Shown: in pieces, positions 18,742-25,316 of the stretch | Layout: every line of letters begins with the position of its first letter | How positions within the stretch are numbered: position 1 is the first letter of the stretch | Assembly: GCA_002399785.1 (NCBI GenBank) | Contig: DHEH01000010.1 | Span: forward strand, 68,106 to 132,105 | Length of the DNA stretch: 64,000 nucleotides | DNA from: Bacillales bacterium UBA4855 | GTDB taxonomy: Bacteria; Bacillota_I; Bacilli_A; RFN20; CAG-826 | Direction: 5' to 3' | The notes under the pieces: model-generated | Told to the model about the DNA's origin: nothing | The model's database searches: none | What the model saw: only the letters and a program-made list of their open reading frames with translations | Made by a program: the position numbers and the translations under genes

Positions 18742-20618
18742 TGAGTACAACTATCAAAACACCTGAAGAATTAAGAATGAAAACGGAGCATTGCGCTTCA
18801 TGTTTAAACAAAAAATTTCATTGTGAAAACGGAAAAAGAGCTATCGTTGTTTGTGGTGGAACTGGATGTATGTCATTCGATTCTCAAGAAATTAAAGAAA
18901 GATTAAGCAAAATTATTAAAGAAAAAGGCTTAGAAGAAAAAATAAGCGTAAATTTTGTTGAATGCTTTGGTTTTTGTTCGCAAGGTCCTTTTGTAAAGAT
19001 TTTCCCTGAAGATACTTTATATCGTATGGTTCAAGTATCTGATGTCGATAAAATTATCGAACAAGATATTATTGGTGGAAAAGTTGTTGATGAACTTTTA
19101 TACATTGATCCAGTAACTAAAGAACACGTTCAAAAACAAGACGATATCAATTTTTATAAAAAACAAATGAGAATTGCTCTTCATGGTTGCGGAGTTATCA
19201 ATCCTGAAGATATTAACGAGGCTTTAGGTTATCAAGGTTTAGAAGCTTTATTAAAAGTTTTAACAATAATGAAACCTCAAGATGTCATTGATGAAATTTT
19301 GGCGAGCGGATTGAGAGGAAGAGGCGGCGGCGGATTCCCTGCTGGTAGAAAATGGCAATTTGCTCACGACCAAAAGAATGATAATAAATATGTTGTTTGT
19401 AATGGTTATGAAGGAGATCCAGGTGCTTTCATGGATAGATCAATTCTTGAAGGAAACCCACTCGATGTTATTGAAGGTATGATGATTGCAGGATATGCTA
19501 TCGGTGCTAAAAATGGTTATTTCTACGTTAGAGCCGAATATCCAATAGCTGTTAAAAGACTTCGAATTGCAATAAAAGAAATGGAAGACCTTGGCTTACT
19601 AGGTGATAACATCTTAGGAACCAATTTCTCATTTAGAGCTCATATAAGATTAGGAGCAGGTGCTTTCGTTTGTGGCGAAGAAACTGCATTATTAAATTCA
19701 ATTGAAGGTAAACGTGGTATGCCACGTCCAAGACCTCCATTTCCAGCCGTTAAAGGATTATGGGGTAGACCAACCATTATTAATAACGTAGAAACTCTAG
19801 CAAATGTACCTCATATCATTAGAGAAGGAAGTAAAAAATTTGCTAGCATTGGTACTGAAAAATCTAAAGGAACAAAAGTTTTTGCTTTAAGTGGAAAAGT
19901 TAATAATGTTGGCTTAGTCGAAGTTCCAATGGGAACAACATTAAGAGAATTAATTTTTGATATCGGTGGAGGAATTCCAAACAATAAAGCCTTTAAAGCT
20001 ATTCAAACTGGTGGCCCATCCGGCGGCTGTTTAACTATGGCTGATTTAAATACACCAATTGATTACGATAACTTAATTGCTGCTGGTTCTATGATGGGAT
20101 CAGGCGGAGCTATCGTTATGGATGAAGATAACTGTATGGTTGATGTCGCAAAATTCTATATGGAATTTATTTGTGATGAATCATGCGGAAAATGTTCTCC
20201 ATGCAGAATCAGTACAAGAAGAATGCTTGAAATGTTAACTGATATTACCGAAGGAAGAGGAACCGAAGATACTTTATACCAACTTCAATATTTAGCTGAA
20301 GTTGTTAAGGGTGGCTCTTTATGTGGATTAGGTAAAACTTCAGCTAACCCAATTCTTTCAACCATGAAAAAATTTCCTTAAGAATACCATCAACACGTTG
20401 TTGATAAAAAATGTGCAGCACATGTTTGTAAGAATTTAATTTCTTTCCATATTGATGCTTATAAATGTAAAAAATGCTCGCTCTGTGCAAGAAATTGTCC
20501 AGTTAATGCTATTACCGGTGAAATAGGTAAGGTTCCTTACGTTATTGATTCCGATAAATGTATTAAGTGTAGATTATGCTTCAGTAACTGCAAATTTGGC
20601 GCAGTCATAAAAGATTAA
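18741..20618 (+). pseudogene. NuoF-like flavoprotein subunit of [FeFe] hydrogenase (HydB/HndC), interrupted by an in-frame TAA at 20379-20381
   Basis: NuoF core (GLRGRGGGGFPAG FMN/NAD site, CGKCSPCR). After the TAA the same frame continues with no ATG or RBS for 78 codons. These encode two CxxCxxCxxxCP [4Fe-4S] ferredoxin motifs, the normal C-terminus of HydB. Confidence 0.7.
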
Positions 20619-20631
20619 GGAGGAAACAAAA

Positions 20632-22401
20632 AATGGATAAAATTAATATTAAAATCGAGGGTCTCCCTTATCAAGTAGATGCCGGTTTAACAATTCTTTA
20701 AGCAGCAAAACAATGTGGGTACGATATTCCTTCTCTATGTTCTTATAAAAAAGGTGAGTGTTCATTAGCTTCGTGCCGTGTTTGCCTTGTTGAAGTTAAA
20801 GGTGCTAGAAGTTTAGTTGCTTCTTGTGTTTATCCAGTTAACGAAGGCATGGAAATTATGATTTCTTCTCCAAAAGCAATTGCCGCAAGAAGAACATCTG
20901 TTGAATTATTATTGAGTAATCACAACAAAAATTGTCAACAATGTATTAAAAACGACGAATGTGAATTACTTTATGCTGCTAAGCAAGTTGGTGCACGCGA
21001 AGGAATGTTTGTGGGTTCAAAATCAGAATCCTTTAAAGATGAAATAGCTCCTGGAATTGTAAGAGATACATCAAAATGTATTTTATGCGGACGTTGTGTT
21101 GTTAGATGCAAACAAGCCCACGGAATTTCAATTTTAGGTTTTGAAAAAAGAGGATTTAAAACAATTGTTGGTCCTGCCGGAAATCTTAGTTTTGCAAATT
21201 CACCATGTTTACAATGTGGTCAATGTGTTCTTGTTTGCCCAACTGGTGCTTTAGAAGAACATTCTGAAATTAGTAAAGTCGATCAAGCTTTTAAAAATGG
21301 AAAATATGTCATTGTTCAAACTGCTCCAGCAGTTAGAGCTGCCATTGCTGAAGAATTTGGTGCTAAAATTGGAACTGTTGCCACTGGGAAAATGGTGGCA
21401 GCTCTTCATAGATTAGGTTTTTATAGAGTTTTTGACACCAATTTTGGTGCTGATTTAACCATTATAGAAGAGGCTAACGAACTTCTTAACAGAATTAAAG
21501 GAGAAGAAGCTTTACCTCAAATAACTTCTTGCTCTCCAGGTTGGATTAATTATTGTGAATTCTTTTATCCTCAATTATTACCATATGTTTCAAGTTGCAA
21601 ATCGCCACATGAAATGATGGGAGCTATTATAAAATCATATTTTGCTAAAAAACATAATATTGATCCAAAAGATATATTTGTTGTTTCGATTATGCCATGT
21701 ACAGCGAAAAAATACGAAAAACAAAGACCTCAAAATTCAGTTGATGGACTTCAAGATGTCGATGCAGTCTTAACTACACGTGAATTAGGTCGTTTAATTA
21801 AAAGAAGTGGTATCGTTTGGAATAAATTAAAAGATGAAGAATTCGATCAACATTTACTTGGAGAATATTCAGGTGCTGGCGCAATTTTCGGTGTTACAGG
21901 CGGAGTTATGGAAGCTGCTTTTAGAACTGCTTATTTTGCTTTAGAAGGTAAAGAATATGAAAAAATCAACTTTACTGAAGTAAGAGGTTTAAAAGGTGTT
22001 AGAGAAGCAACTGTTCATATGGGTGGTATGGATGTCAAAGTTGCTATGGCAAGTGGTATGAGTTATGCTAAACCATTGCTTTATCAAATTGATACCGGAA
22101 CATCACCATATACCTTTATCGAAATTATGTTTTGTCCTGGTGGATGTGTTAACGGTGGAAGTCAACCATTCGTTAAAACTGTTTTCTTACCAAATGAAGA
22201 CGACGATATCTTAGAAACTTATGTCCAAAGAGAGCGAATGTCTTATATAGTGAAGACGAAAGACAAGTTATACGTCAATCACACAATAATCCTGATATAC
22301 AAAAATTATATAAAGAGTTCCTTGGTGAGCCATGTGGCGAAAAAGCTCACAAATTACTTCATACAACTTTTGTTAAAGACAGGCAAAGATACAAAGAATA
22401 A
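20632..22401 (+). pseudogene. hydA: [FeFe] hydrogenase catalytic subunit HydA with in-frame TAA at 20698-20700 and a frameshift near 22229-22234
   Basis: RBS AAGGAGG then MDKINIKIEGLPYQVDAGLTIL-TAA-AAKQCGYDIPSLC, where conserved TILEAA is expected. H-cluster motifs are intact (TSCSPGW, MPCTAKK, CPGGCVNGG). The conserved tail RANVLYSEDE...NPDIQKLYKEFLGEP...KAHKLLH reads in the +2 frame after an (AG)3 tract. Confidence 0.7.
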
Positions 22402-22403
22402 AT

Positions 22404-22441
22404 TAATAAATAGAGGGAAATTTAACCCTCTATTTATTTAA
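22404..22441 (+). terminator. Rho-independent terminator after hydA
   Basis: AATAAATAGAGGG-AAATTTAA-CCCTCTATTTATTT. Confidence 0.75.
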
Positions 22442-22486: not shown

Positions 22487-23122
22487 ATGAACTACAATAA
22501 ATTTATTGATAATACTTTATTAAAAGCTGATACTACCAAAGCGGAAATCAAGGCATTATGCGAAGAGTCGAAAAAATTTGATTTCAAATCATGTTGTGTT
22601 AATCCAGATATGATTGGCTGGACAAACGAATGCTTAAAAGGAAGCGATGTTCTCACTTGTGTCGTTATCGGTTTCCCATTAGGAAGCATGACTACAGATG
22701 CTAAAGTTTTTGAAGCGAGCGATGCAATCAAAAAAGGTGCTGATGAAGTTGATATGGTCATTAATATAAGCGAATTAAAAGATCACAACGATAAATATGT
22801 CGAAAACGAAATTCGCGAAATTAAAAAAGCTTGTGGTGATCACACTTTAAAAGTAATTATTGAGTGCTGTTTATTAACAGATGATGAAAAAATTAGAGCT
22901 TGTTTAGCGGCTAAAGCTGCTGGTGCTGATTTTGTAAAAACATCAACTGGATTCTCAAAATGGGGAGCAAAAGTTGAAGATGTTGCTTTAATGCGCAAAA
23001 CTGTTGGTCCAGTTATGGGAGTTAAAGCTGCCGGTGGAGTAAGAACACATGAAGAGATGGTTGAGATGATTGAAGCGGGAGCAACAAGAATCGGAACAAG
23101 TAGTGGCGCTAAATTAATGTAA
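22487..23122 (+). CDS. deoC: Deoxyribose-phosphate aldolase
   Basis: 211 aa; DeoC signature with catalytic Lys (DFVKTSTGF), VIGFPLG. Confidence 0.9.
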
Positions 23123-23262
23123 TTATTCAAAACCAAGTATTTCAAAGTACATGGTTTTTTATATGTTTTTTACTTGTATTTATCGAAGAAATACAATATT
23201 TATTGCTTTGCATTTATATTTATAGTATTATAAGAAAGCGATTTCGGAAGGTGGTGAGAAAA

Positions 23263-23436
23263 ATGTCAAAAGTAGTAATTAGAGACGGTGAAACACTTGA
23301 TGAAGCTTTAAGAAGATTTAAAAGACAAGTCAATAAAGCTGGAACCATCCAAGAATGCCGCAAAAGAGAATGCTTCTATAAGAAAAATCTTAAAAGAAAA
23401 ATGAAATCTGAAGCAGCAAGAAAGAAATATAGATAA
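23263..23436 (+). CDS. rpsU: 30S ribosomal protein S21
   Basis: [23 protein letters not shown]...; start at the internal ATG behind AAGGTGG. Confidence 0.9.
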
Positions 23437-23449
23437 ATTTCAAAAATAA

Positions 23450-23482
23450 AAGGACAATTGTAAAAATTGTTCTTTTTTTATT
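23450..23482 (+). terminator. Rho-independent terminator after rpsU
   Basis: GGACAATTG-TAAAA-ATTGTTC followed by TTTTTTT. Confidence 0.65.
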
Positions 23483-23599
23483 TTTTCTTCTTAATTTTTG
23501 AACTTAATAGACATCTTGTATGTGAAGGGCAAGAAAAATCTAATAATTATCCCCCACCAAAGTTGGATCTTCTTGCCCTGAAACATAAAGGAGTCTTAT

Positions 23600-24790
23600 A
23601 TGTCTTATTTCATCAAACAAATTATGAGTAAAGATTGCGGTTTTTCATGTCTAAAAATGTTGTTAGCAACAAAACAAAAAAATGAAAATTATCTTTTTTT
23701 AGATCAGGATGTCCAAGATAAACCATATTCTTACGAAAAATTAATAAGTATAGCTAAAAATGAAGGTTGCACATTAAAAGCTTATAAAGTTGTCGATAAA
23801 AAAGAGGTTTTTGAATCTAAAAATTTTCCAATAATGGTCACTTTTTCAAATAATAATACACTTCATATGGTTCTTCTTAAGAAAATAAACAAGAAAACAG
23901 TTGAAATAAACGATCCGGCAAAAGGAGAGTTGACCATTACAAGGGAAGAATTTATCGAACGTTTTAATGGTGAATTTCTAGAATGTGAAGAAATTGAAAA
24001 AAGAAAGTATAAAGCAAGAAAATTTCAATATATAAAAACAAAGCATATATGGCTAGCTTTATCTTTAGAACTTTTAAGTTTTGTTTTACTTATCACAGGG
24101 TTATATTTCAGTAGCGAAACAAATATAATTATCCCAATATTATTATTTATAGGTTTTATTTTAACCAGTTTTATATATCGCAAAATTTTAGTTTTAGGAA
24201 TGAAAGATTTCGACAAAAACGTAATTGAACCGTGTTATTTTCGAAGGAAAAAAGATTCAAAATCTACATTATTTAATATGGTTTCGTTCAAAAAAACATA
24301 TTTTGTATTACCTATCGAATTATTATCTAGTTCATTAATTTTAATATTTGGAAGTGTTTTACTTGCTCTTAACAGCATGTTAAATCTTATTAATGTATTA
24401 GTAATAATAATGTGTGAAATATTGTTTTATATCTTATTTAATAAAAAAATAAATGCCAAAAAAGCAAAAATTCAAGAGAAAGAAGAGGTTTTAAGTAAAA
24501 ATAACGATGAAGAAATTACTAAAAAGGCTATGGAAGAGGCGACAAATGAAGTCTATTCAATATCTAATTACTATGACTCCAAAAAATATATTACAGTTTT
24601 TCTTATTTTAATAATGACGCTTTTAAATATGTATATAGTTGATAAAATAAGTTTAAATTTTTTAATATTCCATTTTTTCTTTTATTCTTATTTAGATGAG
24701 TCAATTTCAAAAATAATAGATTTTTTAGATTCGTTCGACGAATACAAATATTATAAATGTCTTTATCTAAATTACTGTAAAGAAGAATAG
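23600..24790 (+). CDS. Peptidase C39 domain fused to an ABC-exporter-type transmembrane domain, lacking a nucleotide-binding domain
   Basis: Catalytic Cys in SKDCGFSCLKML, His in NTLHMVLL, DPAKGE. About 6 predicted TM helices follow. No Walker A/B; the gene ends 64 nt before ybeY. Confidence 0.65.
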   Translation: MSYFIKQIMSKDCGFSCLKMLLATKQKNENYLFLDQDVQDKPYSYEKLISIAKNEGCTLKAYKVVDKKEVFESKNFPIMVTFSNNNTLHMVLLKKINKKTVEINDPAKGELTITREEFIERFNGEFLECEEIEKRKYKARKFQYIKTKHIWLALSLELLSFVLLITGLYFSSETNIIIPILLFIGFILTSFIYRKILVLGMKDFDKNVIEPCYFRRKKDSKSTLFNMVSFKKTYFVLPIELLSSSLILIFGSVLLALNSMLNLINVLVIIMCEILFYILFNKKINAKKAKIQEKEEVLSKNNDEEITKKAMEEATNEVYSISNYYDSKKYITVFLILIMTLLNMYIVDKISLNFLIFHFFFYSYLDESISKIIDFLDSFDEYKYYKCLYLNYCKEE

Positions 24791-24854
24791 TGTATAACAA
24801 ATTACATATTTATTTTTAAATGATTATTCCTAAATATGATATAATTATGAAACG

Positions 24855-25316
24855 ATGGAATTCTCATTCAATAACGAAACAAATAACACTCTGGAAGAAT
24901 ATTCTGAACTTTATGAAAAATTGTTTTTAAAGACCTTAAAAACACTTAATTTAAGTTCTGAATATATTGTTAGTGTTACCATAGTTTCTAAAGAAGAAAT
25001 ACATCGAATTAATCGAGAATATCGACACATAGATCGTCCAACTGATGTAATCAGTTTTGCGTTTCTTGATGACAAAAAAGAAATTGTCAAAGGTGGAGAT
25101 ATTCCAATCGATTTAGGGGAAATTTACATTTGCTATGATGTTGCTGAAGAAAATGCAAAAAAATACGGAAATACACTAAAACGAGAATTATGTTTTCTTA
25201 GTGTACATGGATATTTGCATCTATTAGGATATGATCATATAACAAAAGAAGATGAAACCATTATGTTTGGTCTTCAAGATGTGATACTTCCTCCAAATAA
25301 GGAGATCATTTTATGA
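24855..25316 (+). CDS. ybeY: rRNA maturation endoribonuclease YbeY
   Basis: HGYLHLLGYDH zinc-binding motif. Confidence 0.9.
   Translation: MEFSFNNETNNTLEEYSELYEKLFLKTLKTLNLSSEYIVSVTIVSKEEIHRINREYRHIDRPTDVISFAFLDDKKEIVKGGDIPIDLGEIYICYDVAEENAKKYGNTLKRELCFLSVHGYLHLLGYDHITKEDETIMFGLQDVILPPNKEIIL

Follow-up and report, generated by a model that had tools for sequence, protein, structure and literature searches.

What becomes of a peptidase-containing exporter from which the motor is missing? This question is raised by a gene found in a stretch of 64,000 nucleotides from Bacillales bacterium UBA4855 (contig DHEH01000010.1; hereafter the window, meaning the whole stretch that was analysed, whose numbering is used throughout). 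The gene was called as an open reading frame (ORF) on the + strand (23600..24790, stop codon TAG), and it encodes a protein of 396 aa in which an N-terminal C39 peptidase domain is followed by a membrane domain predicted to adopt the fold of ATP-binding cassette (ABC) exporters, with no ATPase domain. Peptidase-containing ABC transporters (PCATs) are the textbook case of the coupling of leader cleavage and export to ATP hydrolysis. The reading towards which we lean, at little more than an even chance, is that the protein is a functional, lineage-specific PCAT derivative whose ATPase domain has been lost: what was kept is the module with which a PCAT recognises, cleaves and holds its cargo, and what was lost is the motor. 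The interval first proposed for the gene (23484-24790) did contain this coding sequence, but its first position, 23484, falls inside a 5′ leader of 116 nt (23484-23599) and is not the start of the coding sequence; the ATG at 23600 is preceded by a Shine-Dalgarno (SD) sequence, AAGGAG, at 23588-23593.

The peptidase domain, of the double-glycine (GG) type, comprises residues 1-132 (23600..23995, + strand). Its similarity to C39 peptidases, proposed by the initial annotation, was upheld by the Pfam profile Peptidase_C39 (PF03412), which matched residues 3-131 with E=7.4e-20 and 71.6 bits against a cut-off of 22, and the three motifs quoted in its favour were all found, DCGFSCLKML at residues 12-21, LHMVLL at residues 88-93 and DPAKG at residues 105-109. 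For a broader comparison, an alignment of 90 diverse family members was used, which are ~25-35% identical to the window protein. The profile of these 90 members matched, among the PDB entries, LahT150 (6mpz, E=7e-19), PCAT1 (4ry2, E=1.7e-18) and ComA (8hf6, E=4.8e-13). Gln7, Cys13, His89 and Asp105 (codons 23618-23620, 23636-23638, 23864-23866 and 23912-23914, + strand) aligned one to one with Gln21, Cys27, His101 and Asp117 of LahT, which constitute the catalytic triad and the putative oxyanion residue of that protein (PMC6363468). Cys13 and His89 were invariant, and Gln7 and Asp105 were conserved in 99% of the 90 members. Since the full catalytic set aligns to that of LahT, the domain is, judging from its sequence, a catalytically competent C39 peptidase, with Gln7 as the oxyanion residue, Cys13 as the nucleophile, and His89 and Asp105 completing the set, and not a Cys-less C39-like domain (CLD) of the HlyB type.

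The peptidase is joined by a basic linker (residues 133-146, IEKRKYKARKFQYI...; 23996..24037, + strand), read from the sequence and of low predicted local distance difference test (pLDDT) values in the model, to a six-helix membrane domain of predicted type-IV ABC-exporter fold (residues 147-392; 24038..24775, + strand). In the full-length AlphaFold2 (AF2) model, with a pLDDT of 80, a papain-like fold was followed by six long helices (147-169, 177-215, 220-258, 260-300, 304-347 and 352-392), as expected from the claim of about six transmembrane helices, and the C-terminus lay 4 residues past helix 6. The top fold match of this model in the PDB was PCAT1 (E=8e-14), and HlyB (7sgr) was matched as well. 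Because the match of the full-length model to PCAT1 could stem from the peptidase domain, residues 138-396 were modelled alone, using 30 homologues. This membrane-only AF2 model reached a pLDDT of 93 and a predicted template modelling score (pTM) of 0.84, with helices of 22 and 39-44 residues, and the best 50 PDB matches found by Foldseek were all membrane domains of type-IV ABC exporters. PCAT1 came first, with a template modelling score normalised to the query (TMq) of 0.64-0.68, and TmrAB (0.69), SbmA (0.62), TM287/288, BmrA, TAP and MsbA were also matched. Helices 2-3 and 4-5 were linked by turns of 1-3 residues and would therefore lack coupling helices. The PCAT-type membrane domain is thus a fold-level claim drawn from a confident prediction: the likeness to PCATs suggested by the initial annotation held at the level of the fold, with PCAT1 as the top match, and did not hold by sequence alone, and the Pfam profile ABC_membrane gave no match to the window protein at E<=1.

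The distribution of charges along the chain suggests that both termini lie in the cytoplasm, as in exporters. The linker, the segments 196-235 and 284-330 and the C-terminus are basic, and the turns 170-176, 258-262 and 347-352 are not; by the positive-inside rule, the basic linker would place the peptidase on the cytoplasmic side. Four polar residues of the membrane half were nearly invariant among the 90 members, namely Asp205 (99%), Lys231 (94%), Asn258 (98%) and Glu295 (98%), and belonged, together with Gln7, Asp105, Pro106 and Gly109, to the positions conserved in at least 94% of the alignment. In the model, Asn258 would be located at the extracellular turns, and Asp205, Lys231 and Glu295 in the intracellular bundle.

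The second part of the question concerns the ATPase. The statement that the protein carries neither Walker A/B motifs nor an ABC signature was borne out, as no match to the Pfam profile ABC_tran was found at E<=1, and among the window's ORFs of 100 aa or more, which were also examined for a separate ABC ATPase, none contained a Walker A or an LSGGQ motif. Neither ABC_tran nor ABC_membrane was found in any of the 90 members scanned (0/90), and no ABC ATPase was present in the called genes of the related loci that were inspected with Pfam. When the membrane-only profile was compared with 5.8 billion proteins, it retrieved family members only, the best 120 of which were all 387-406 aa long with C39 as the sole domain. 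Furthermore, the distance between the stop at 24790 and the start of ybeY is only 64 nt, which leaves no room for a frameshifted ATPase domain; the lack of space before ybeY had been pointed out from the start, and the alternative of an ABC domain hidden downstream by a frameshift does not apply.

The same architecture characterises a large family. A word-indexed search recovered 17 homologues of 373-399 aa, in all of which C39 was the sole Pfam domain, and an exhaustive profile search recovered 1576 representatives at E<=1e-3, of which the stricter limit of E<=1e-30 left at least 284 clusters (50% identity); the best 150 listed were nearly all 373-422 aa long and matched from end to end. PF03412 was found in 90 of the 90 diverse members scanned, with C39 alone. 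Compared with the two closest relatives (88% and 72% identity), the ratio of nonsynonymous to synonymous substitution rates (dN/dS) was 0.095-0.10 and was equal for codons 1-135 and codons 136-396; by this measure, both halves of the protein are under strong purifying selection. In a scan of one genome per species, the gene was found in 68 genomes, all of them metagenome-assembled, whose labels include Bacilli, 'Mollicutes', Erysipelotrichaceae, Ca. Onthovivens and Ca. Fiminaster, and many of the contig names point to the human, chicken, horse or ruminant gut. In the databases, these proteins are labelled 'hypothetical protein', 'predicted double-glycine peptidase' or as a generic bacteriocin exporter, and no description of an ATPase-less C39-membrane family was found in the open-access literature.

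Concerning its genetic context, the gene lies between rpsU, encoding ribosomal protein S21 (23263..23436, + strand; Pfam Ribosomal_S21, E=1.9e-16), and ybeY, encoding an endoribonuclease (24855..25316, + strand; Pfam YbeY, E=2.4e-43), and ybeY is followed in the window by cdd, era, recO, glyS and dnaG. It had been supposed that the gene was inserted in, and interrupted, an rpsU-ybeY cluster. This supposition was contradicted by the related loci, in which ~10 kb on each side of the gene was inspected per genome, with a comparison against eight window proteins by tblastn and, in some of them, with gene calls inspected by Pfam. Of the 59 loci from different species that had enough sequence, 55 carried ybeY no more than 400 nt downstream; of the other four, two have insertions (L037 and L065), one is a damaged copy (L061), and one ends with its contig (L067). 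The upstream neighbour was more variable: 45 of 64 related loci had rpsU at a distance of less than 400 nt, and its place was otherwise taken by dnaJ, by valS and a lipoprotein gene, or by a YqfD-like gene. In addition, the identity of the protein correlated with that of the flanking Era, GlyS and S21 (Spearman 0.62-0.81), which argues for vertical inheritance. From the conserved adjacency to ybeY and this vertical inheritance, it follows that the gene is a long-standing resident of the slot upstream of ybeY and does not interrupt it. In Bacillus, this slot is occupied by phoH and pgpH (yqfF); a PhoH Walker A motif was found neither in the window nor in any related locus, and no match to the PADLOC defence models was obtained. 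The family is therefore a candidate lineage marker, being a near-universal and unannotated gene of uncultured gut and rumen Bacilli that is fixed beside ybeY.

How does such a protein relate to systems already described? With the PCATs, also known as ABC transporter maturation and secretion (AMS) proteins, such as PCAT1 of Clostridium thermocellum, ComA, LahT and NukT, it shares the N-terminal C39 domain with the Gln/Cys/His/Asp set, the six-helix type-IV exporter-fold domain after the peptidase, which is predicted here, and apparently the topology. However, no nucleotide-binding domain was present in any family member examined here. The membrane domain, of ~245 aa, is shorter than the aligned stretch of PCAT1, given that ~300 alignment columns were needed for 259 residues, and its predicted loop tips carry no coupling helices; its sequence is not recognisable as ABC_membrane; and the gene belongs to a housekeeping operon, with no adjacent GG-leader, accessory or immunity genes. 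Because both the ATPase and the gene-cluster features of PCATs fail, the protein should not be filed as an ABC transporter. The best NCBIfam match was NF045998 (Mbov_0121 family, a Mycoplasma-type PCAT; E=7.7e-16), which comes from related low-GC Bacilli and Mollicutes and aligned residues 6-168 with positions 1-173 of 673, corresponding to the peptidase and the first membrane helix. Nevertheless, the score was 57.5 bits against a cut-off of 500, and ~500 model positions, including the ATPase, had no counterpart.

Two further comparisons help to define what was kept and what was lost. [quoted passage not shown] On the other hand, SbmA has no peptidase domain and imports peptides, and PCAT1 was the better structural match. 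The Pfam profile SbmA_BacA matched neither the window protein at E<=1 nor the 90 members at E<=0.01, indicating no sequence relationship, and proton-driven peptide transport as in SLiPTs would be only an analogy for this protein. HlyB-type exporters with a CLD share the fold of an N-terminal papain-like domain followed by an exporter membrane domain (7sgr), but present the reverse situation: the CLD has no catalytic Cys (PMC6363468) and the ATPase is kept, whereas here it is the peptidase that is intact and the ATPase that is missing. Stand-alone or excised C39 domains, such as the LahT150 construct and FapD (to which a weak match was found, E=1.7e-4), are also catalytic domains without an ATPase, but these are soluble or single-domain proteins, while here a whole exporter-fold domain is kept under strong constraint.

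If the protein is a functional PCAT derivative without its motor, its most economical mode of action could be outlined as follows. It would be a membrane-embedded dimer like an ABC exporter, its N- and C-termini both facing the cytoplasm. The cytoplasmic C39 domain, held and activated by the membrane domain, would cleave one or more precursors encoded elsewhere after a Gly-Gly-type site, and the chamber of the exporter fold would take up the cargo, any translocation of which would proceed without ATP, whether passively or, like that of SbmA, at the expense of the proton-motive force; alternatively, the chamber would act as a docking scaffold only. A hairpin occluding the SD sequence would keep translation low or conditional. 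The equal constraint on both halves and the near-invariant polar residues Asn258, Asp205, Lys231 and Glu295 indicate that the membrane half is more than an anchor, and because of this constraint and the SbmA precedent, processing with ATP-independent cargo release is tentatively favoured, although at less than an even chance, with a membrane protease confined to processing as the next candidate. The early suggestion of an ATPase-independent membrane protease, of a type not usually annotated, therefore stands as far as sequence and predicted structure reach, the database labels being generic or hypothetical.

The gene probably performs a core maturation step in its hosts. In its boldest form, which we consider rather unlikely, the preferred reading would make the family the first peptidase-containing exporter that is facilitative or driven by the proton-motive force. 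It would then represent an ancient PCAT that lost its ATPase and that continues to process and release a conserved housekeeping precursor, e.g., a surface or signalling peptide. A whole clade of gut Bacilli with reduced genomes and, in part, no cell wall would need this function, and a leader that occludes the ribosome-binding site would co-regulate it with genes for ribosome maturation. The strong constraint on a large family shows that the peptidase-membrane module can come under selection by itself, without an ATPase or coupling helices, and next to SbmA the family would constitute a second natural bridge from ABC exporters to ATP-independent membrane proteins.

Several observations weigh against the reading of a functional PCAT derivative. 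Neither the window nor 73 related loci (up to 10 kb on each side, ~1.2 Mb) contained a credible GG-leader ORF, as had been anticipated by the initial annotation for the vicinity of the gene; the search comprised a regular expression applied to ORFs of 25-160 aa, a position-weighted score applied to all ORFs of the window and the 73 loci, and an inspection of the small intergenic ORFs of the window. Accessory or immunity genes adjoined the gene neither in the window nor in these 73 loci, and the housekeeping operon offers no hint of a secreted product. The exporter homology of the membrane domain depends on a predicted structure, and a membrane-only hidden Markov model (HMM) found nothing significant among the PDB sequences (MsbA, E=3.4). 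Because of this null result, the long alignments of the full-length profile to PCAT1 and ComA are not independent evidence for the membrane domain, and they were dropped as such. Glu190 in helix 2, a candidate proton-coupling acid, occurs in 72% of the members and is replaced by Ser in the window protein. Finally, dimerisation, topology and energy source are all inferred, and the peptidase and transport activities are themselves putative.

The main recurrent false positive of the leader search was a conserved protein of ~145 aa encoded between dnaJ and rsmE in seven related loci (L007 4392-4835, L013, L017, L045, L051, L052 and L064). This protein presents an N-terminal zinc ribbon (MPKCKYC...CPFCGG) and a weak match to a TM2 domain, and its apparent leader score came from an E at -8, hydrophobic residues at -7 and -4, and the GG. 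The CPFCGG segment was rejected as a GG leader, as its sequence looks like a CxxC...CPxC metal-binding knuckle. By eye, the window's own small ORFs look like those of ribosomal proteins S20, L32 and L33 and of other housekeeping genes such as XseB.

Among the alternatives, the one that survives best, with a real if minor chance of being correct, is a membrane-tethered processing or regulatory protease without any transport, in which the exporter fold would anchor, dimerise and activate the C39 domain for the maturation or degradation of a conserved cytoplasmic or membrane protein. Such a role would suit a gene kept in the ybeY/era housekeeping operon in 55 of 59 loci, with no bacteriocin-like, accessory or immunity gene nearby and with the energy-coupling module absent from all 90 members and from the model. 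Moreover, association with the membrane domain stimulates the peptidase activity of PCAT1 and NukT (PMC6363468). However, constraint on the membrane half equals that on the peptidase half (dN/dS about 0.095-0.10), the near-invariant polar residues Asn258, Asp205, Lys231 and Glu295 exceed the needs of a simple anchor, and the full exporter architecture, with helices of ~40 residues, has been retained.

A split ABC transporter, in which the peptidase and membrane half of a PCAT would work with an ATPase encoded elsewhere in the genome, is improbable. The long intracellular helical extensions kept in the model (helices of 39-44 residues) would agree with it, and the inspection reached ~10 kb on each side in each genome. 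Nonetheless, an ATPase gene with Walker A/LSGGQ motifs is absent from the 64-kb window, no ATPase was found among the called genes of the Pfam-inspected related loci, and the tight intracellular turns of the model appear to lack the coupling helices on which an ATPase would dock. Fusion to the ATPase is, as far as is known, nearly universal among type-IV exporters, which also counts against a split arrangement.

It is very improbable that the C39-like domain is non-catalytic and serves as a chaperone for the substrate, in the manner of HlyB-type type I secretion: the full-length model does match HlyB (7sgr), but Cys13 and His89 never vary among the members, at least 99% of which also keep Gln7 and Asp105, whereas CLDs have no catalytic Cys, and the CLD reading was rejected on the conservation of the catalytic residues. 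Least probable of all, to the point of being negligible, is a PCAT pseudogene, truncated or in decay, or a frameshifted ATPase concealed by an error of assembly, which the resemblance to a PCAT cut after helix 6 and the damaged look of a nearby hydrogenase gene might suggest, but which is excluded by the uniform length (371-422 aa) that the same architecture shows across 68 species-level genomes and across 284 or more clusters (50% identity), by the conserved residues including the invariant Cys13 and His89, by a dN/dS of ~0.1, by the position of ybeY 64 nt after the stop, and by a membrane profile that never retrieves an ATPase-containing protein; on the grounds of conservation and dN/dS, the description as a truncated PCAT remnant was refuted and the pseudogene reading rejected.

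The expression of the gene may also be controlled by its leader RNA. After rpsU, an AT-rich hairpin followed by a T-run (23451..23486, + strand), read from the sequence and its fold, is likely a weak intrinsic terminator; it was not called in the terminator scan because its stem has fewer than 3 G-C pairs, and most orthologous leaders have a clearer terminator hairpin at the same place. Downstream of it, RNA folding revealed a long imperfect hairpin (23509..23597, + strand), at the foot of whose stem the SD sequence AAGGAG (23588-23593) is paired. In its core stem, GGGCAAGAA (23527-23535) pairs with TTCTTGCCC (23570-23578), and a C-rich loop, TCCCCCACC, is placed at 23550-23558, all on the + strand. 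The minimum free energy of the leader was -46.6 kcal/mol (z=-6.0), and 0 of 200 shuffles were as stable, which agrees with the structured leader noted in the initial annotation. The leader was 91% identical to that of L074 and 80% identical to that of L006, the two close relatives, although the proportions of differing synonymous sites (pS) were 0.44 and 0.68, and one stem difference was a change from C-G to U-G.

Across the family, the leaders differ in sequence, and most of them carry a CCUCC/CCCC anti-SD segment 10-25 nt upstream of a GGAGG-type SD. The mean pairing probability of the SD was 0.81 in 58 family leaders versus 0.45 in 513 other genes of the same loci (Mann-Whitney P=7e-20, a value that is indicative only because the sequences are related). 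An Rfam scan of 22900-25100 at E<=10 gave only chance-level hits far below the gathering scores (for example IS009, 22 vs 117 bits), so that the leader belongs to no known riboswitch or leader family. When the surroundings of the gene were scanned for consensus promoters and terminators, sites resembling promoters were no commoner than in shuffles and no leader terminator was called. We read the hairpin as a probable device that damps or controls the translation of this membrane protein gene, which lies behind a highly expressed gene for a ribosomal protein, and the recurrence of hairpins sequestering the ribosome-binding site would represent a simple and testable form of translational control inside a housekeeping operon.

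Other modes of expression are suggested by some of the sequences. In a subclade of seven loci (L020, L022, L023, L025, L027, L037 and L062), neither an SD nor an anti-SD hairpin precedes the ATG, and a conserved CTTATATAT box is found ~15-20 nt upstream of it. The CTTATATAT box suggests a dedicated promoter with a very short or leaderless 5′ end, which would be another expression solution for the same gene. In the window, ybeY is not preceded by an SD sequence, and an extended -10-like box, TGATATAAT, ends 9 nt before its ATG (window 24836-24857), so that the ybeY mRNA may be leaderless or near-leaderless from its own promoter, or its expression may be coupled to the upstream gene.

Some orthologues showed irregular reading frames. 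In L061 (341-1545), the frame ends at codon 233 and many stops follow, with ybeY still downstream, and this copy is possibly a pseudogene or the result of a sequencing error in a metagenome-assembled genome (MAG). An in-frame TGA was found at codon 149 in L008, L009, L024 and L028 and at codon 113 in L019, although the protein similarity carries on as far as the usual end; in these lineages, TGA is probably a sense codon, as in the Mycoplasma-like code. For uncultured Bacilli of the GTDB order RFN20, there are reports of other codon reassignments (PMC8629427).

The nearby hydrogenase gene mentioned above is an [FeFe]-hydrogenase HydA-like ORF (20849..22441) that lacks the N-terminal 2Fe-2S part (~72 aa). 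This part is present in the 589-aa counterpart of the 88%-identity relative L074 (641..2410). The C-terminus of the window ORF is frameshifted after ...DDDILETY, and the segment 20382-20848 contains no ORF of more than 50 aa; the HydA-like gene (20381-22441) is thus either a decaying hydrogenase or affected by assembly errors. Finally, seven contigs with a Bacilli-type operon (L009, L024, L028, L029, L032, L033 and L034) were deposited under unrelated names, namely Slackia isoflavoniconvertens, Parabacteroides goldsteinii, Acutalibacteraceae, Lachnospiraceae, Oscillospiraceae, Bacteroidaceae and Gemmiger formicilis. Where recovered, their flanking genes were ~45-80% identical to those of the window, L034 being represented by the C39 match only, and these contigs were probably mis-binned or mislabelled.

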